This document shows, piece after piece, positions 38,635-62,324 of a DNA stretch of 64,000 nucleotides; positions within the stretch are counted from its first letter, which is position 1; every line of letters begins with the position of its first letter. The notes under the pieces were generated by a model. The model was given only the letters and a program-made list of their open reading frames with translations, had not been told where the DNA came from and did not search any database. This stretch comes from a bacterium (GTDB taxonomy: Bacteria; Zhuqueibacterota; QNDG01; DSAB01): the NCBI GenBank assembly GCA_011388275.1, contig DSAB01000119.1, positions 110,045 through 174,044 on the forward strand, given 5' to 3'. A program made the position numbers and the translations under genes.

Positions 38635-38663
38635 TTGATTTAATAGTGAAGAGGTCCTATATT
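38635..38663 (+). promoter_or_regulatory. sigma70-type promoter of the GT2 gene
   Basis: TTGATT-17-TATATT; implies a start codon at 38689 or 38701 rather than 38662. Confidence 0.55.
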
Positions 38664-38688
38664 GATAGCGGTTCCTCCTACAAACCTG

Positions 38689-39807
38689 ATGACGGATCCC
38701 ATGATTCTATTTCTCTTCACAGGTGCGCTCTTCCTCTTTTATGCCTTACTGCTCACCTGGCTTTCCGGAGGTTTCCGGCGATTGCGCCCGTCTTTAATTC
38801 GGCACTATCCATCTCTCAGCATTATTGTACCCGCTCATAATGAAGCACGTCATCTTCCGGTTCTGTTAAGCTGTCTTGAACGACAAATTTACCCGTCCGA
38901 CCGGCTGGAAATCATTCTGGTCAATGACCGTTCAAATGACGGAACGGAAAAGATCATGAAAAACTTCGTGAATCATCATGCCAGATCCTTCATGATTTCG
39001 ATCAAAGATGTCGATGAGGAATTCTCACCCAAGAAATACGCCATTACCCGCGGAATTGAGTCCGCGACAGGTGAAATCGTTCTCACAACCGATGCCGATG
39101 CGATACCCGGTCCCCGCTGGGCGGAAGCTATGGCCGGCTGTTTCGCTCCCGACACGGACATGGTGATCGGGTACGCGCCTTATCGAACCGACGGCCCGTA
39201 TGATTCTTTTTTTCATCGTCTTTTGGCTCTTGAATATTTTGTACTGGGATGTATCGGAGCCGCCTCTCTGGGGCGTGGATATCCAATATCCGCCAATGGA
39301 GCCAATTTGGCCTACAAGAGGAAGCGATTTATATCAACCGGAGGATTCGGTCCTGGACGGTGCATGATATCGGGTGACGATGATCTGCTCCTTCACCGGT
39401 TTCGATATGAGCGGGGCTTCCATGTCCGTTATGCCCTGTCCCGGGATGCCCGGGTCTTTAATAATCCTCCTTCCACCCTCCTTCGCTTTATCAAACAGCG
39501 TCTGCGCTTTTCGTCCAAACATCTGCGTTATCCTCCCAGGCTTCTCGCAGCCATGAGTCTCACGTATGCCTTTTATTCAGGGATTCTTTTGCTGATTGCC
39601 GGATCCATTCTTATGCCCTCATTGCGATGCGGCACTGCGATCCTTCTGTCAGGGAAAATCGCAGTGGAACTGTTTTTTCTGAGCCGCGGGAAACCATATC
39701 TCGAACAGCGAAACCTGATTCGATATTATCCCTTTGCCTTTTTTCCCCATCTCCTCTATGTTGTTTTAATTCCTTTTTTCGCGCGATTTCTACGAACCCG
39801 CTGGTAA
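38689..39807 (+). CDS. Membrane GT2 family glycosyltransferase
   Basis: N-terminal TM, IIVPAHNE, VNDRSND, TDAD, SGDDD, QRLRF (QxxRW-like), C-terminal TMs. Confidence 0.9.
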   Translation: MTDPMILFLFTGALFLFYALLLTWLSGGFRRLRPSLIRHYPSLSIIVPAHNEARHLPVLLSCLERQIYPSDRLEIILVNDRSNDGTEKIMKNFVNHHARSFMISIKDVDEEFSPKKYAITRGIESATGEIVLTTDADAIPGPRWAEAMAGCFAPDTDMVIGYAPYRTDGPYDSFFHRLLALEYFVLGCIGAASLGRGYPISANGANLAYKRKRFISTGGFGPGRCMISGDDDLLLHRFRYERGFHVRYALSRDARVFNNPPSTLLRFIKQRLRFSSKHLRYPPRLLAAMSLTYAFYSGILLLIAGSILMPSLRCGTAILLSGKIAVELFFLSRGKPYLEQRNLIRYYPFAFFPHLLYVVLIPFFARFLRTRW

Positions 39808-39859
39808 CCGAAATGTAAGGTTAATCCCGACAGCATTTATCCATGATTCTGTTTTTCAG

Positions 39860-39888
39860 TTGACAAACAGAAAGACTTTCCGTATCTT
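39860..39888 (+). promoter_or_regulatory. sigma70-type promoter of spt-cerS
   Basis: TTGACA-17-TATCTT. Confidence 0.6.
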
Positions 39889-40020
39889 CTTTGGATGCCA
39901 TTTTAAGCATGACCACGTTTCATATTCCTGGATTTCAATTTTTCACCCGAATCTTTTCGCTGATACCTGTTCTGGAAACGAGAATTGAATCTTATGATGA
40001 AAAGCCGAAAGGAGAATTCT

Positions 40021-41208
40021 GTGGATATTTTTGATAAATGTCACAAGTTTACTCGAGCCAAAGAAGCCATCGCCGCAGGTATTTACCCCTATTTTCAACA
40101 AATCCAATCCGGCCCCGGTTCTGAAGTCATCATCAATGGAAAATCGATGATCATGATCGGATCCAACAACTATCTGGGTTTAACAGGCCATCCAAAAGTC
40201 ATTGAAGCCGGAATATCGGCTATTCGGAAATACGGGACCGGATGTACCGGATCCCGTTTCCTGAACGGGACCCTGGACATTCACGAAGAGCTGGAAAAAC
40301 GGCTTGCACGCTTTCTCAATCGCGAAGCGGTTCTCTGTTTCAGCACCGGTCATCATGTCAACCAGGGCTGCATATCCACGCTGGTCGGCAAGAAAGACAT
40401 CGTATTTACGGACCGGGCAGACCACGCCTCGATCGTCGATGGAACGCGACTGACTTTCGGTAAAATCGTCAAATACAAACACAATGACATGGAAGACCTG
40501 TGCCGGGCCCTGAAGCATTATGAAAATCATAGTGCCGGAAAAATGATTGTCACCGACGGTGTTTTCAGTATGGAAGGCGATATAGTCAATCTTCCGGGAC
40601 TGGTTAAGCTTGCAAACCAATTCAATGCTCGCGTGTACGTAGATGACGCCCACTCCGTGGGTGTTCTGGGAAAACACGGAAGGGGAACCGGAGAACATTT
40701 CGGTCTCGAAGATCAAATTGACCTTCAGATGGGAACCTTCAGCAAATCCTTCGCTTCACTGGGCGGTTTCGTCGCCGGAGATGAAGATGTCATTCACTAT
40801 ATCAAACACCATGCCCGTTCTCTGATTTTCACTGCCAGCGCCCCTCCGGCCTCGGTTGCCACGGTTCTGGCCGCTCTGGATATAATTGAATCAGAACCCG
40901 AACGTATCGAACAGTTGAGAAAAATCACTCAAAAGATGAAACGGGGTTATGACTCTCTGGGTTTCGACACCGGAAAAAGTGAGACTCCCATTATTCCCAT
41001 CAAGATCGGAAAGGAAGAAGACTGCTTGATGTTCTGGAAACTTCTGTTCGATAACGGCATTTTCGCAAATCCCTCCATCAGCCCGGCGGTCCCCCCCGGC
41101 GAAGCCATCATCCGGACCAGTTATATGGCCACCCACACGGAAGATGAACTAAATCAAATTCTGGAAATCTTCGCCCGATTGGGCAAGCAATTCGGAATTA
41201 TTCCATAA
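40021..41208 (+). CDS. spt: Serine palmitoyltransferase (alpha-oxoamine synthase family)
   Basis: GTG start after AAGGAG; YPYF, GSNNYLGL, GSRFLNGT, DHASI, DDAH, PLP lysine in MGTFSKS (SPT-type rather than the T[LF]GKA of BioF/Kbl). Confidence 0.85.
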   Translation: MDIFDKCHKFTRAKEAIAAGIYPYFQQIQSGPGSEVIINGKSMIMIGSNNYLGLTGHPKVIEAGISAIRKYGTGCTGSRFLNGTLDIHEELEKRLARFLNREAVLCFSTGHHVNQGCISTLVGKKDIVFTDRADHASIVDGTRLTFGKIVKYKHNDMEDLCRALKHYENHSAGKMIVTDGVFSMEGDIVNLPGLVKLANQFNARVYVDDAHSVGVLGKHGRGTGEHFGLEDQIDLQMGTFSKSFASLGGFVAGDEDVIHYIKHHARSLIFTASAPPASVATVLAALDIIESEPERIEQLRKITQKMKRGYDSLGFDTGKSETPIIPIKIGKEEDCLMFWKLLFDNGIFANPSISPAVPPGEAIIRTSYMATHTEDELNQILEIFARLGKQFGIIP

Positions 41209-41226
41209 ACAAGAATGAGGGAATCG

Positions 41227-42351
41227 ATGTCTTCTGAAAACGTTCAGATTTTTAACGTTCAATCGAAGAAGGATTGGAAACAGTTTGTCATGTTTCCATA
41301 CCACCTGTACCGTCACCATCCCTTCTGGGTGCCTCCGCTGATTTCCGATCAAAAGAAACTGCTGGATTTCGACCTCAATCCCTTTTTCAGCCATGCCTCG
41401 GGCCGTTTTTTCCTGGCGCGCCGTGGAAACATAATTGTAGGGCGCATAGCTGCCCTGGTTGATGATCTCCACAATCAGATTCACCATGAAAAGACCGGTT
41501 TCTTTGGTTTCCTGGCTGTGGAAAATGATTACGAAGCAGCGGCTGCTTTGCTGGACGCGGCAAGAAATTGGGTCCGAAAGCAGGGCATGAAACAATTTCG
41601 AGGCCCGGTGAATCCTTCGCAAAACGAAGACTGCGGCCTGCTCATCGACGCTTTTGATTCACCGCCCGTTATCATGATGCCCTATAATCCGGAGTATCTG
41701 GTTCACTTTTTAGATCAATACGGATTGAAAAAAGCGGTTGATTTATACGCCTATTTACTGGATGGAACCAAACCCCAGCCGCCTAAACTGGTTCGTGTCG
41801 CCGAATTGGTTGCGAAAAAACCGGGCGTGAATATTCGTCCAATTGATATGAAACATTTTTTTCAGGAAGCTCGAATGATTTGGAAAGTCTATAATTCGGC
41901 CTGGGCGAATAATTACGGATTCGTACCCATGACCGAAGAGGAATTTGTTAACCTTGCCAAACATCTCAAACAGGTGGTTGTTCCTGATTTGGCTCTGATG
42001 GCTGAAATACACGGTAAACCAGCAGGTTTCTCCCTGTCCATTCCCGACATGAACCAGGCACTTATTCATCTCAATGGACGTCTTTTCCCGCTCGGAATTT
42101 TCAAACTGCTTCATTACTCACGAAAAATCAATCAATTGCGGATAATCATACTCGGCGTCCTGCCGGAATACCGCCGAACCGGAGTCGACGCAGCCCTTTA
42201 CGGCCATACATGGAAAAACGCCGTTTCTCGTGGATATATAAAAGGCGAGATGTCATGGATTCTGGAGAATAATACCATGATGAACCGTTCGGCCCGCATG
42301 CTTGGGGGAAAAATATATAAAACCTATCGAATTTATGAAATGCAATCCTGA
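41227..42351 (+). CDS. GNAT-fold protein, bacterial ceramide synthase-like
   Basis: PYHLY..PFWVPPL, NPFF, VGRIAA, GFFGF, GLLIDAFD.PP..MMPYNPEY, PDMNQAL, EMSWILENN; 18 nt after spt. Confidence 0.8.
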   Translation: MSSENVQIFNVQSKKDWKQFVMFPYHLYRHHPFWVPPLISDQKKLLDFDLNPFFSHASGRFFLARRGNIIVGRIAALVDDLHNQIHHEKTGFFGFLAVENDYEAAAALLDAARNWVRKQGMKQFRGPVNPSQNEDCGLLIDAFDSPPVIMMPYNPEYLVHFLDQYGLKKAVDLYAYLLDGTKPQPPKLVRVAELVAKKPGVNIRPIDMKHFFQEARMIWKVYNSAWANNYGFVPMTEEEFVNLAKHLKQVVVPDLALMAEIHGKPAGFSLSIPDMNQALIHLNGRLFPLGIFKLLHYSRKINQLRIIILGVLPEYRRTGVDAALYGHTWKNAVSRGYIKGEMSWILENNTMMNRSARMLGGKIYKTYRIYEMQS

Positions 42352-42363
42352 ATTGTCCTGATA

Positions 42364-42598
42364 TGCACACAACTCATGCAACAAATTGTTATATATTTGT
42401 TACATTTTCAAGTCATTGATACTACTACATCTATGGTTTTTTCTCGATAATTTGTAAACTATTGTTAACATTCTGATTATTAACATCCCTGGAATAATGT
42501 GCATTCCGATACATCCAATTCTATCCTTAAGTTATATCTAATCAATATATTATCTGTCTTCATCGATGATGACATCGAAGAATGGCATGTTTCTTGTT
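42364..42598 (+). promoter_or_regulatory. Putative sigma54 promoter with upstream activator sites and IHF site
   Basis: TGGCATGTTTCTTGT at 42583-42597 (GG-N10-GT); IHF consensus AATCAATATATTA at 42540-42552; TGT-N12-ACA at 42387-42404 and 42453-42470; TGCA-N9-TGCA at 42364-42380. Confidence 0.55.
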
Positions 42599-42608
42599 AT
42601 GGAAAATA

Positions 42609-42677
42609 GTGTTGGTGCAATTCTCATCTCGCCTCTCCCCTTTGAAAAAAGGCCTGGATCCCCTCCAGGCCTTTTTC
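42609..42677 (+). ncRNA. Candidate sigma54-dependent small RNA (~70 nt)
   Basis: Lies between the predicted sigma54 start and a strong terminator; C/U-rich CTCATCTCGCCTCTCCCC segment; no convincing plus-strand gene. Confidence 0.45.
42645..42677. terminator. Bidirectional intrinsic terminator
   Basis: AAAAAA-GGCCTGGA-TCCCC-TCCAGGCC-TTTTT. Confidence 0.85.
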
Positions 42678-42706
42678 TGTAATCTATGCATAACGTTCCA
42701 AAAAAG

Positions 42707-43054
42707 TTATTCGATCCAGTATAATATCCTTCCACATTGTTCGCATGTCATAATTGTCTGATCCGATCGTCCGGAAGCTTCATAAGAAGTGGGCAAGCGA
42801 GCGAAACATCCCAAACAGGTGCCGTCCTGAACCGGGGCAATGACTCTTATGTAACGTGTATTCAGTCGTTGAAAGGTCCGAAGCAATCGGGTTTCGATCC
42901 TTTTTCCCAAATCATCTCTTGCTTTTTCCAGACTCTCTCTTCCCTTTAATTTAAATCCGGCTTTTTTTTCTTCCTGTTCCGCTTCCAGAAGCATCATGCT
43001 GATGTCCTGATATAAAACCAAGAGTTCCAACTGATTTTTCGTCAATGGAATCAC
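42707..43054 (-). CDS. Short coiled-coil/C4 zinc-ribbon protein (DUF164/CT398-like)
   Basis: LVLYQDI N-terminus; CLGC..LP..CEQCGRILY. Confidence 0.8.
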   Translation of the reverse strand: MIPLTKNQLELLVLYQDISMMLLEAEQEEKKAGFKLKGRESLEKARDDLGKRIETRLLRTFQRLNTRYIRVIAPVQDGTCLGCFARLPTSYEASGRSDQTIMTCEQCGRILYWIE

Positions 43055-43512
43055 ACCTCCTGAATGGCCTGAATAAAGGAACGGAAATCATTGGCATTCA
43101 TCAGCGTTTTTCGTTTTTTTGCATCACGTAATCTTTCAACCAGTTTGCCCAAAATCGGCAGATATATGTTCGCTTTTTCCTGTGGCGGAGCGAGGATGAG
43201 AAATATCAGATGAACCTTTTTTTTATCCGGAGCGTTGTATTCCACACCCTTTTGGGATAGGGCGGCTACGATAAACACCTCTGCAACTGCCAAAGTCCGG
43301 CAATGAGGTATGGCTATTCCCCTGCCAATAGCCGTACTTCCCAGGCTCTCCCGTGTCAGCAAAGTCTGCAATACGATCGAACTGCTCTTGATCTTTCCGG
43401 AATCAACCAAAACCGCAACCATCTTCTGCAGCAACTCTTCCTGGCTTGAAGCTTCAACATCGGGGATAAAATAATCTTCATTTAAATAATCGGCCAGATC
43501 AATATCAATCAT
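43051..43512 (-). CDS. PTS EIIA domain protein (Ntr/fructose type)
   Basis: RESLGSTAIGRGIAIPHC phospho-His motif; D.K.VHLIFL. Confidence 0.9.
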   Translation of the reverse strand: MIDIDLADYLNEDYFIPDVEASSQEELLQKMVAVLVDSGKIKSSSIVLQTLLTRESLGSTAIGRGIAIPHCRTLAVAEVFIVAALSQKGVEYNAPDKKKVHLIFLILAPPQEKANIYLPILGKLVERLRDAKKRKTLMNANDFRSFIQAIQEV

Positions 43513-43552
43513 AGTATTTGTCTTTCCACGGAAAGGCTATTCTGTATGACCA

Positions 43553-44623
43553 TTACAAATATTTTTGAAGATTTTTTCTTTTAAACCTCTCGACAATTTT
43601 CTTGACATCCTCGACGCGATCCCTGCGGCAAATCAGAGTAGCGTCCTTTTCCTGAACTATAATGATGTCTTCCATTCCGATGACGGCGATAACACCACTG
43701 GAAGTGGAAATATAGCAATTCCGGGAATCCATGGTCACCACATCACCTTGAATGGCATTTCCATCTGAATCTTTTTTACTGAGTTTATAGGTCTGCTCCC
43801 AGCTTCCGAGATCATTCCACTCGAATTCACCTTTGACGAGAAAAACGTTGTCCGCTTTCTCCATAATCGCATAATCAATGGATATTCCCCGTATCTGCCG
43901 GTACACCTTCTCCAGAGTTTCTTCATAATTATTGTTTCCAATGACTTTCTTGAGCGTGAGCAAGGCTTCATATAAATCCGGTGCATATTTTTCAAACGCT
44001 TTTAACAATACGGATATTTTAAAGATGAATATTCCGCTGTTCCAGTAGAAATCACCGCTTTTCAAGAACCTTTCAGCAGTCGCCAGATTGGGTTTTTCAG
44101 CAAAAGTACGGACACTGAACGAACTGATGCCGTTCAATTTTCCCAAATTCTCTTTGATTTGTATATACCCATAACCGGTTGCCGGACGGTCGGGCTGAAT
44201 ACCAATGGTTACCAAAGCGTCTTTTTGACCGGCCAAGCTCACTGCCGCCATAACGGTTTTTCGGAATCGATCTTCCTGCCGAATCAGATGATCCGCAGGA
44301 GAAACAACCATGATCGCTTCCGGATCACGAGCCTCTACAAACAGTGCGGCCAGTCCGATGCAAGGTGCCGTGTTCTTGCCTATGGGTTCGTAGATGATAT
44401 TTTGAGAAGGGACGGGAAGATGCTGTTTTTCCATTTCACATTTCTGGCCGATGTTGGAAACGACAAACAAATGATCGGGTGAGGTAAGCGGAAGAAACCG
44501 GCGAACCGTGCTTTCAATCAGGGTCTGTTTTCCAACAAGAGAAAGGAATTGTTTGGATCTTTTCTTTCTGCTGTGCGGCCAGAATCGTGAACCGGAACCA
44601 CCGGCCATCAGTATGCAATACAT
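43553..44623 (-). CDS. manC: Mannose-1-phosphate guanylyltransferase
   Basis: MAGGSGSRFWP.SR, KQFL, EP.GKNTAP, PADH, TGYGYI, FAEKP, WNSG, WNDLGSW. Confidence 0.93.
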   Translation of the reverse strand: MYCILMAGGSGSRFWPHSRKKRSKQFLSLVGKQTLIESTVRRFLPLTSPDHLFVVSNIGQKCEMEKQHLPVPSQNIIYEPIGKNTAPCIGLAALFVEARDPEAIMVVSPADHLIRQEDRFRKTVMAAVSLAGQKDALVTIGIQPDRPATGYGYIQIKENLGKLNGISSFSVRTFAEKPNLATAERFLKSGDFYWNSGIFIFKISVLLKAFEKYAPDLYEALLTLKKVIGNNNYEETLEKVYRQIRGISIDYAIMEKADNVFLVKGEFEWNDLGSWEQTYKLSKKDSDGNAIQGDVVTMDSRNCYISTSSGVIAVIGMEDIIIVQEKDATLICRRDRVEDVKKIVERFKRKNLQKYL

Positions 44624-44674
44624 GAAAATCCTTTGCTCCAGCCAATAGATATTTTCCGGGGCGCCTCCGGCCTA

Positions 44675-44703
44675 AAGATAATCATTTACCATGAACAAAT
44701 CAA
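44675..44703 (-). promoter_or_regulatory. sigma70-type promoter of manC-EIIA-zinc ribbon
   Basis: TTGATT-17-TATCTT. Confidence 0.45.
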
Positions 44704-45305
44704 GTGTTTTGACTGTTTTTACAGGATAAATAACGGTGTAAATCACGCGCTTTTTTCCGAAGAGCATTCAGAGAACGATCATTATAAATGATCACATGAG
44801 CCCTGCCTGCCTTAAGATCATCGTTGAGCTGTGAATCCATCCGAAGTGATATATCTTTCAGGGTCCATTTTCTGTCTTTTTGCAGCCAATGCAGTCTTTT
44901 TTCCCTCGGAGCAATCACCAGAACGATTAGATCAAACCAATCATCCAGTTCCGCCTCCATAAGAACAGCCATATCAACTACAACGTGTTCTTTGGCCGGA
45001 CTTCGATAAGGAAGCAGAAGCGGCATAAGAGCCGATCGAATCAGGGGAAACATGATGTCATTCAGGCGACGGAGCTGAAGAGAATCGGAAAAGACGATGG
45101 AAGCCAGTTCTTCCCTTTGAAGAATCCCTTCTTTAAAAACAAAATCTCCAAACGATGAACGGATACGATCGCTGGCTTCAGGGACTTCCTCGATAATTTG
45201 GGCGGCCAGTTTGTCCACATCGATAAGCGAACCGTTGCAGCGGCTCAGTTCTGCGGCAAAAGAACTCTTTCCCGAGCCTACACCGCCTGTGACCCCAACG
45301 ACCAT
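44700..45305 (-). CDS. coaE: Dephospho-CoA kinase
   Basis: GVTGGVGSGKS, LASIVF, RMDSQ. Confidence 0.92.
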   Translation of the reverse strand: MVVGVTGGVGSGKSSFAAELSRCNGSLIDVDKLAAQIIEEVPEASDRIRSSFGDFVFKEGILQREELASIVFSDSLQLRRLNDIMFPLIRSALMPLLLPYRSPAKEHVVVDMAVLMEAELDDWFDLIVLVIAPREKRLHWLQKDRKWTLKDISLRMDSQLNDDLKAGRAHVIIYNDRSLNALRKKARDLHRYLSCKNSQNT

Positions 45306-60905: not shown

Positions 60906-62324
60906 TTAAATTTGCCGCCTCAAACGTGCCACGGGAATCATCATCTGTTCCCGGTATTTGGCCACCGTGCGCCGGGCGACACGAAATCCTTCCTTGTGCA
61001 GCATCTCTGAAATGGTCTGATCGTTCAAGGGTTTTCGAGTGTTTTCCTTCTCGATAATCTCCTTGATTCTCGCTTTGATGATTTTATTCGACACATCTTC
61101 ACCGGACTCCGTTTCGAGACGTTCACTGAAGAAATATTTCAGCTCAAAAACACCGAAATCGGTCTGTACATACTTTCCGTTGGTCACCCGGCTCACTGTG
61201 GAGATATCCAGATCGACATCATCCGCCACGTCTTTCAGTATCATGGGTTTCAGGGCTTCTTTCCCTTTCTCAAAAAAACCTCTCTGATGTTTGAGGATCG
61301 ACTCCATCACCCTGAGAATAGTCGATCGGCGCTGATAGATGGAGTTGATAAGCCATCGTGCCGATTCGAGACGCTGGCGAATATAGTCTCTCGTCTCTTT
61401 GGTTACATGGGTTTTGTCCTTGAGTAACTGTTTGTATGATTCATTGATCCTGAGTCTGGGAATATTCCAGTCATTGAGTGTAATTTGGAACTTGCCATCC
61501 TGTTTCTCGACAATAATATCCGGAATAATATAATTCTCGGCTTCCGAGATGTATCTTTCTCCCGGTTTGGGGTTCAATCTGGCCACCGAATCCATGAGTC
61601 GCTTCACGGTTTCAAGGGGAATCCCCAGTTTCTTGGATATCTTCTCATATCTTTTATTGGAAAAATCGTCGAAACACTCTGTCAGCATTCGAATCGCCAG
61701 TTCATTTCTCGGCTCCTGTTCGAGCAGCTGAATGGTCAGACATTCCTGAAGATCTCTGGCACCGATACCAACCGGATCGAAACGCTGAATGACGCACAGC
61801 ACGGTCTCGACCTCTTCTTGAGTTGCATCGAACTGTTCGGCAATGGTATCGATATCACAGGCAAGATATCCGTCATCATCCAGACACCAAAGGATGTACT
61901 CTCCGATCGCGGCTTGTCTTTCATCGAAAGGAGCCAGGTGAAGCTGCTCAAACAGATGATCGAGAAGGGTTACCGGAGCCGGCTCGGGTCGTTCCATATC
62001 GTCTTCACGGTGTTCCCTCGGCTGTTTGATTTCATAATTGTCTTCATCATTGAGAATACTGTCCCAGTCAATCTCTTCTTCTTCGATCTCTTTCTCTTCT
62101 TCCTTTTCCTCCTCTTCTTCCTCCTCTTCCTCTTCGGTTTGTGGCTCCTGCATTTCCAATTCCTGCTCTTGTTCAAGCTCCATTTCCAGAAGAGGGTTGA
62201 TTTCCAGTTCCTGCTTTATCCGCTGTTCCAGGCGAAGTACCGGAAGCTGAAGAAGAGTTGACAGAAGAACCTGTTGGGGACTTTGTTTCTGCTGCAGGAG
62301 CAGTCTCTGGGTTATTTGAATCAT
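60906..62324 (-). CDS. rpoN: RNA polymerase sigma-54 factor
   Basis: Gln/Leu-rich region I, acidic region II, STVSR, RpoN box ARRTVAKYRE. Confidence 0.97.
   Translation of the reverse strand: MIQITQRLLLQQKQSPQQVLLSTLLQLPVLRLEQRIKQELEINPLLEMELEQEQELEMQEPQTEEEEEEEEEEKEEEKEIEEEEIDWDSILNDEDNYEIKQPREHREDDMERPEPAPVTLLDHLFEQLHLAPFDERQAAIGEYILWCLDDDGYLACDIDTIAEQFDATQEEVETVLCVIQRFDPVGIGARDLQECLTIQLLEQEPRNELAIRMLTECFDDFSNKRYEKISKKLGIPLETVKRLMDSVARLNPKPGERYISEAENYIIPDIIVEKQDGKFQITLNDWNIPRLRINESYKQLLKDKTHVTKETRDYIRQRLESARWLINSIYQRRSTILRVMESILKHQRGFFEKGKEALKPMILKDVADDVDLDISTVSRVTNGKYVQTDFGVFELKYFFSERLETESGEDVSNKIIKARIKEIIEKENTRKPLNDQTISEMLHKEGFRVARRTVAKYREQMMIPVARLRRQI

Follow-up and report, generated by a model that had tools for sequence, protein, structure and literature searches.

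Small RNAs driven by sigma-54 are, to our knowledge, known mainly from Proteobacteria (Qrr, GlmY/GlmZ and the Desulfovibrio ncRNAs). Vibrio Qrr RNAs require Hfq. In sections of the Qrr literature, Qrr1-5 are short trans-acting RNAs for which one enhancer-binding response regulator (LuxO) together with sigma-54 is the sole known promoter input. The RsaE/RoxS RNAs of Firmicutes are Hfq-independent and repress by pairing of a C-rich tract with G-rich ribosome-binding sites. In E. coli, QseF/GlrR sites with sigma-54 and IHF drive the sRNA GlmY, the consensus of these sites being written TGTCN10GACA in a section of PMC3045617 and TGTN12ACA in a section of PMC6075780. Four sigma-54-dependent ncRNAs of Desulfovibrio vulgaris have dedicated regulators with the ncRNA as their only target, as described in a part of PMC4641369.

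The stretch of DNA analysed here, hereafter the window, is 64 kb long. It includes a gene-free gap of 355 bp (42352-42706), flanked by convergent ORFs at 41215-42351 (+) and 42707-43054 (-). An AT-rich gap of this length between convergent genes had been described in the original prediction and was borne out by the ORF map and by the GC content, which was 0.295 for 42300-42599 versus 0.39-0.53 in the remaining 200-nt windows of 40000-45000. All the motifs that had been listed for 42364-42677 were found in place by direct reading of the sequence. The gap very probably encodes a real sigma-54-type small-RNA gene, and the features of the locus are as follows:

41215-42351, + strand: upstream neighbour, ceramide-synthase-like GNAT gene (weak Pfam GNAT match)
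42387-42404, + strand: UAS1, putative distal enhancer site, TGT-N12-ACA, 196 nt upstream of TGGCAT
42453-42470, + strand: UAS2, putative proximal enhancer site, TGT-N12-ACA, 130 nt upstream of TGGCAT
42540-42552, + strand: IHF-consensus match AATCAATATATTA (WATCAANNNNTTR) at -43, not supported as functional
42583-42597, + strand: sigma-54 type -24/-12 promoter TGGCATGTTTCTTGT, TGGCATG-N4-TTGT, with conserved bases and spacing
42609-42678, + strand: predicted small RNA of ~70 nt, its 5' end placed from the promoter geometry
42632-42642, + strand: C-rich tract CGCCUCUCCCC (CGCCTCTCCCC), putative seed, conserved in relatives
42647-42678, both strands: bidirectional intrinsic terminator with A-run, 8-bp GC-rich stem, 5-nt loop and T-run, shared with the Zn-ribbon/ptsN-like operon
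42707-43512, - strand: convergent neighbours, Zn-ribbon gene (42707-43054) and PTS EIIA-2/PtsN-like gene (43051-43512)

With GlmY/GlmZ of the Enterobacteriaceae the predicted gene shares its position as a stand-alone sRNA gene behind a sigma-54 promoter and beside cell-envelope genes and, going by sections of PMC3045617 and PMC6075780, the presence of multiple TGTCN10GACA or TGTN12ACA sites approximately 100-200 bp upstream. It differs from them in several respects: the Rfam sequence and structure models of GlmY/GlmZ gave no match, the RNA is ~70 nt long with a C-rich tract versus the 184-nt glmY feature of E. coli K-12, two sites are present versus three, no IHF site is conserved, the activator gene is not adjacent, no protein attains the GlrR cut-off, and the phylum is another one (KSB1-like). 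The likeness to Qrr lies in the short RNA, in the predicted promoter input of an enhancer-binding regulator plus sigma-54, and in the number of related RNAs per genome, at least three sigma-54-to-terminator units being found as candidates in the genome under study; unlike Qrr, there is no Rfam match, Hfq was not found here, and both seed and taxon are unrelated. Like the predicted RNA, RsaE/RoxS is short and leaves a C-rich tract unpaired, and some members also have a terminator loop rich in C, but its promoter type is different. The gathering score of the RsaE model is 79 and the match reached 19.5 bits, so that the predicted RNA is not an RsaE member. Desulfovibrio vulgaris is likewise an environmental bacterium rich in enhancer-binding proteins, whereas its regulator gene adjoins the RNA in at least two cases and it belongs to another phylum (from a part of PMC4641369, the RNAs being compared by description only).

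No Rfam family reached its gathering score in the window stretch, and no match at E ≤ 0.01 was obtained in nine related loci. The best Rfam match, cyano_het_sRNA, was rejected (32.0 versus 35.7 bits, on the minus strand and mostly over the terminator hairpin). Literature on KSB1 small RNA or sigma-54 included, among the matches listed, no description of this RNA or of any KSB1 sRNA. The sRNA, proposed as undescribed, is so by both searches.

The promoter TGGCAT-N5-TTGT has the GG at -24, the G(C) at -12 and the fixed 10-nt spacing that define sigma-54 promoters. GGCAT, the spacing and TTG were invariant across the alignment of five genera (G023 reads CGGCAT), and the last -12 base was T in the genome under study, G003, G001 and G014, C in G017, G023 and G005, and A in G007. 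The pattern TGGCA[CT]-N5-TTG[CT] had 28 matches in the genome, 14 of them in non-coding DNA (~8.5% of the genome, taken as the remainder after a crude ORF mask), which is an enrichment. Eight of these 14 end in TTGT, and therefore the T in place of the usual C, already pointed out in the original prediction, is no argument against a promoter here. The same prediction had staked itself on conservation in relatives, and the GG-N10-G spacing and the seed are both kept. It had also placed rpoN in the window, where the gene was located near 60912-61388. One copy of rpoN was found, together with 16 full-length enhancer-binding proteins (Sigma54_activat, >225 bits) and one at 111 bits.

The ordered cassette was detected, with a patchy distribution, in eight of the 31 genomes of the order, representing three of its seven families: the genome under study (G000), G001, G003, G005, G007, G014, G017 and G023. 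It consists of two TGT-N12-ACA sites, TGGCAT-N5-TTG[C/T], a variable stretch of ~30-40 nt that puts the tract 43-54 nt past the start of TGGCAT, the tract (C/U)CUCUCCCC and a hairpin with a U-rich tail. The genomes searched were all of other genera. Protein mapping recovered the convergent gene pair in eight other genomes, giving nine loci in total. All five long gaps (own, G001, G003, G017 and G023, from five genera and two families, the four others being ~330-455 bp) carry the ordered elements, and none of the four short ones (~20-210 bp; G002, G004, G008 and G009) carries any motif.

A covariance model built from the five long-gap loci (R1) found the further members G014 (52 bits) and G007 (40 bits), the latter a weaker version with TTGA at -12 and CGT-N12-ACA sites 24 bp apart; G005, with its promoter 47 nt further from the tract, was added by eye. 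Additionally, a metagenome scan yielded two new members (contigs L271 and L298) with the same layout and synteny, as well as two close copies of G017 and G001. R1, when run on 151 genomes of the phylum, 120 of them beyond the order, gave no true match outside the order, a match in G039 being rejected as a tRNA plus terminator, and over 80 ceramide-synthase loci from many phyla the best scores were only 23 and 15 bits. A MAFFT alignment of the eight members misaligned the seed and was excluded from the model, and an alignment with reverse-strand terminator rows was excluded from the pair counts. For the flanking gene, the nearest relatives with a name were MAGs labelled candidate division KSB1.

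In a DNA search of 41 related genomes the coding flanks matched in 26. The G001 match covers the unit from promoter to terminator, starting at 42582, the base just before the -24 element (query 583), and the G007 match covers it from seed to terminator, starting at 42632 with the C-rich tract. The remainder of the gap was unalignable, and the 250 nt from the upstream stop codon to the promoter showed no conservation.

It could be argued that no separate gene is present, and that the cassette is a 3' UTR of the upstream lipid operon or a product of its processing, or that the motifs have come together by chance in an AT-rich spacer. Such a view agrees with the position of the upstream gene on the same strand and with the lack of a detected terminator from its stop codon to the hairpin. 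On the other hand, the conserved boxes are a -24/-12 element of fixed spacing and paired sites at enhancer distances, the stretch between stop codon and promoter is unconserved, and the cassette is kept in G014 and G007, in which the upstream gene differs or sits on another contig. Chance is excluded by three controls. The exact promoter-plus-seed pattern had 46 matches in ~185,000 species genomes, of which only the two from this order have at least two TGT-N12-ACA within 260 nt upstream (one other match has a single site, and the remaining 43 lack it); 73 of 80 metagenome pattern matches lack TGT-N12-ACA; and in the genome under study this motif occurs 422 times (45 non-coding), with three pairs 55-80 bp apart, the only non-coding one being that of this gap. 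The absence of a separate gene is thus very improbable. Judged by conservation in other genera, four elements are beyond chance: the UAS pair, the -24/-12 promoter, the C-rich tract and the hairpin terminator. What comparison shows to be conserved is the order and spacing of enhancer sites, promoter, tract and terminator, with covariation and without a reading frame.

The two TGT-N12-ACA sites, 66 bp apart as originally noted, are also kept in other genera. Relative to the T of TGGCAT, they lie at -196/-130 in the genome under study, -195/-126 in G003, -197/-127 in G001, -196/-128 in L271, -184/-115 in L298, -185/-117 in G005 (with an additional distal site at -207), -173/-106 in G017 and about -173/-107 in G023; a UAS2-equivalent site was also recorded at -113 in the member scan. 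Their spacing across members was 66-70 bp and their positions were at a typical enhancer distance, those of the present locus falling within the ~80-200 bp upstream at which activator sites of sigma-54 promoters are placed, in a layout kept in the orthologues. In several copies the sequence is TGTC-N10-GACA, as in the consensus published for GlrR/QseF, and G005 carries three textbook sites of this type. The centre of the site was T-rich on the promoter strand in most copies.

Two other motifs of the proposed architecture did not hold as functional elements. The exact IHF consensus was present, among seven members scanned, only here (-43) and once in G001, elsewhere (-163), the chance expectation of an exact match in an AT-rich gap of this size being ~0.07 by a rough estimate. 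TGCA-N9-TGCA (42364-42380) was carried by none of the eight other syntenic gaps. The genome contains two genes of the HU/IHF family, so the DNA may still be bent, either by a protein or through its own AT-richness.

An enhancer-binding protein would bind the two sites ~130 and 196 bp upstream and, once bound, would activate the TGGCAT-N5-TTGT promoter; this activator would probably belong to a two-component system and have a DNA specificity similar to that of QseF/GlrR. The sites of the members have the form of the QseF/GlrR regulon (TGTC-N10-GACA or TGT-N12-ACA). The most GlrR-like regulator (G000:C1:22717-24081) showed 43% full-length identity to E. coli GlrR and scored 401 bits against the NCBIfam GlrR model, whose cut-off of 763 was not attained by any protein of the genome. 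Its orthologues were present in six of the seven other carriers and also in many non-carriers, and were not found in the carrier G014. Another regulator, on G000:C43, with a GlrR-like HTH as a weak local match, was rejected because its orthologues occurred only in three non-carriers, and a high-scoring UAS-like site at C2:5399 was dismissed as lying inside a coding region. The distribution of orthologues across the order was examined for two of the 16 regulators. TGT-N12-ACA is also given as the site of the PpsR/CrtJ repressors in sections of the literature on them; since these use the same half-sites, the motif alone cannot name the binding protein.

RNA polymerase with sigma-54 would transcribe from this promoter a stand-alone regulatory RNA of ~70 nt. 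The predicted RNA was present in single copy in the 2.82-Mb, 155-contig assembly and was the sole plus strand match of R1 in the window. A conserved ORF was sought on both strands of the cassette in the syntenic gaps and none was found; the ATG and stop positions vary between orthologues, and in G001 the frame that the ATG of ATGGCATG opens runs for five codons before it closes. With its own promoter, an intrinsic terminator and no conserved frame, the unit has the make-up of a trans-acting sRNA gene. As far as can be read from DNA, it is highly likely that the RNA is made, and only with its activator on.

The hairpin GGCCTGGA-TCCCC-TCCAGGCC (42653-42673) is preceded by six A and followed by five T (42674-42678), runs that make termination possible on both strands, and lies 33 nt beyond the stop codon of the Zn-ribbon gene. 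It was clearly shown by folding (MFE -23.4 kcal/mol, z -3.4), and 11 of 16 pairs keep their pairing via changes on both sides in the five-genus alignment. A consensus terminator scan, which gave no terminator between the upstream stop codon and the hairpin, also missed the hairpin itself, probably because the A and T runs lengthen the stem and consume the T tail. The proposed unit of ~70 nt ending in a terminator is supported by the comparison. The UCCCC loop did not prove to be a fixed feature: a C-rich loop was read in four of the eight genome members. Transcription would stop at this strong hairpin, which would also serve as terminator of the convergent Zn-ribbon/ptsN-like operon.

The ceramide-synthase-like gene is the final gene of a GT2/serine palmitoyltransferase cluster and adjoins the RNA gene in six of the eight genome members. 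The gene preceding it scored 552.6 bits against the NCBIfam serine palmitoyltransferase (CFB type) and did not reach the model cut-off of 640. The RNA gene is flanked by this GT2/serine palmitoyltransferase/ceramide-synthase-like cluster (38662-42351) and by a mannose-1-phosphate guanylyltransferase-like gene (43553-44623), which places it within a run of cell-envelope genes. The match of the Zn-ribbon protein (115 aa) to the NCBIfam model of the regulatory protein CdsZ, which is 251 residues long, was confined to the 95 C-terminal residues of the model (42 bits, cut-off 275). In this order the Zn-ribbon gene always has a PtsN-like EIIA gene as partner.

The convergence of the RNA gene with the Zn-ribbon gene in nine of ten loci (seven of the eight genome members, L271 and L298), with ptsN adjoining wherever the locus sequence extends (the G001 contig is too short to show it), makes a cis-antisense role at the shared terminator a live rival. 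By this account the RNA is a real sigma-54 RNA that acts in cis on the Zn-ribbon/ptsN-like operon and not as a general anti-RBS repressor; the transcripts would be fully complementary at the shared terminator, read-through would lengthen the duplex, and the stability or termination of the ptsN-like mRNA could be altered. The convergence is maintained even without the ceramide-synthase neighbour (G014, G007), the A-run and T-run flanking the terminator make it symmetric, and searches for trans targets found none. Nevertheless, G005 carries the RNA gene and lacks the Zn-ribbon/ptsN genes in its 3-kb locus, the sure overlap is only the self-paired terminator hairpin, and the best-conserved tract lies outside the operon mRNA if the operon terminates normally. 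The cis role is considered unlikely.

The tract, whose core is written CCUCUCCCC within the putative seed, reads (C/U)CUCUCCCC in six of the eight genome members, CCUCUCCUC in G005, CUUCUCCC in G023 and AUCUCGCCUCUCCCCUUU in L271 and L298, and the conserved RNA stretch around it is ~17 nt. The centroid fold leaves it unpaired in the genome under study, G003 and G001; in G017 and G023 part of it is paired. The seed had been proposed as complementary to a Shine-Dalgarno sequence plus AUG. Its C-rich part is conserved, but the anti-AUG part is not (CAU, UAU, CGU and AAU among the orthologues). In the proposed mode of action the mostly single-stranded tract (A)UCUCGCCUCUCCCCUU would pair with G-rich start regions, independently of Hfq, and block translation; the case for this step is about evenly poised.

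A duplex scan of 2374 heuristic start regions gave 60 sites at ≤-18 kcal/mol for the real seed versus 41-61 for eight shuffled C/U-rich seeds. Three candidate targets were rejected, their complementarity being lost in orthologues: G000:C3:5691 (135-aa secreted protein, no Pfam), C15:1987-3174 (395-aa envelope-like protein) and a TPM-domain gene on C21 (in the genome under study, 15 of 16 nt pair in a stretch that spans SD and AUG). A candidate site in C47 was rejected as lying within a tRNA-synthetase gene. The start regions of the neighbouring genes were ordinary. The exact 10-mer complement GGGGAGAGGC had 78 matches in five carriers, not above the reversed control in three of the five; in the genome under study and 30 of the 78 relatives' loci, two of these complements lay before a start codon, both in relatives, and no gene family recurred. 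An mRNA target of conserved complementarity, a further mark of trans-acting sRNAs, was thus not obtained in these searches. An SD-like 4-mer was present before 1329 of the 2374 heuristic starts versus 215 in a control window, in a set whose starts had been picked in a way that favours motifs of this kind. The assembly, 96.5% complete, yielded neither an Hfq gene, although it has at least three small-RNA candidates, nor a 16S rRNA 3' end.

In Hfq-less bacteria, C-rich single-stranded tracts in sRNAs usually pair with G-rich start regions. This general behaviour speaks against another explanation, namely that the RNA binds or titrates a protein (e.g. a C-rich-RNA binding protein) or decoys another RNA, rather than pairing with start regions. 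The ~17 conserved nucleotides do exceed the need of a generic anti-Shine-Dalgarno function, no conserved complementary mRNA site was found, and GlmY, the sRNA whose promoter comes closest to this one, is a protein decoy according to sections of PMC4152352 and PMC7073468. However, no candidate protein is at hand and the tract is single, with no repeated motif. A protein-binding or decoy function is considered improbable.

Taken as a whole, a stand-alone regulatory RNA of ~70 nt, activated by sigma-54 and an enhancer-binding protein and sharing its terminator with the convergent operon, is the likely reading of the locus. Of the undescribed bEBP-controlled sRNA first proposed, the ORF-less unit of enhancer and sigma-54 promoter with its conserved tract stands, while three details are not borne out: the IHF site, the pair of TGCA motifs and the complementarity to an AUG.

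Other sigma-54 RNA candidates were observed in the order, outside the window. A second one in the same genome (G000 C11:10160-10270, minus strand; L198:955-1071) has the promoter TGGCATATGAATTGC, then ~75 nt that include the tract UACCCCUUGU and a strong terminator; all three elements are kept in G002 and G027 (74% mean column identity), and an upstream 11-bp inverted repeat, CATATTTCAGA ... TCTGAAATATG, could be a different enhancer site. A third unit (G000 C10:7288-7430, plus strand; L199) has TGGCATGTTTTTTGT, ~115 nt with AAUCCCCCUAAGG and a GC-rich terminator, and lies ~200 bp before the next gene. L080 (G007:C121:4316-4413, minus strand) and L079 (G011:C62:3786-3892, plus strand) share a unit of TGGCAA-N5-TTGC, CUCAAUUCCUUUCCUCUUCCCC and a terminator, which looks like a fourth C/U-rich sigma-54 RNA family of the order, not seen in the genome under study. 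As candidates, they bring the sequence families in the order to at least four.

If real, this would be, by the literature found, the first sigma-54 sRNA family to be documented for a candidate phylum within the FCB group. The two enhancer sites, the -24/-12 element and the lack of a competing gene make the locus handy for de-orphaning one of the 16 enhancer-binding proteins, and the proposal is testable by heterologous reconstitution, though the carriers are uncultured. The occurrence of a QseF/GlrR-type site before an sRNA gene by envelope-lipid genes suggests one of two origins, an old pairing of regulator and sRNA or a convergent design. More tentatively, and with considerable doubt, the lineage may run a layer of post-transcriptional control via several Hfq-independent C-rich sRNAs, each with its own enhancer-binding protein and sigma-54 promoter, of which the present family would be a QseF/GlrR-like envelope-sensing output that tunes envelope (sphingolipid/polysaccharide) or PtsN-linked functions. 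If true, the QseF-GlmY logic would reach far outside the Proteobacteria.
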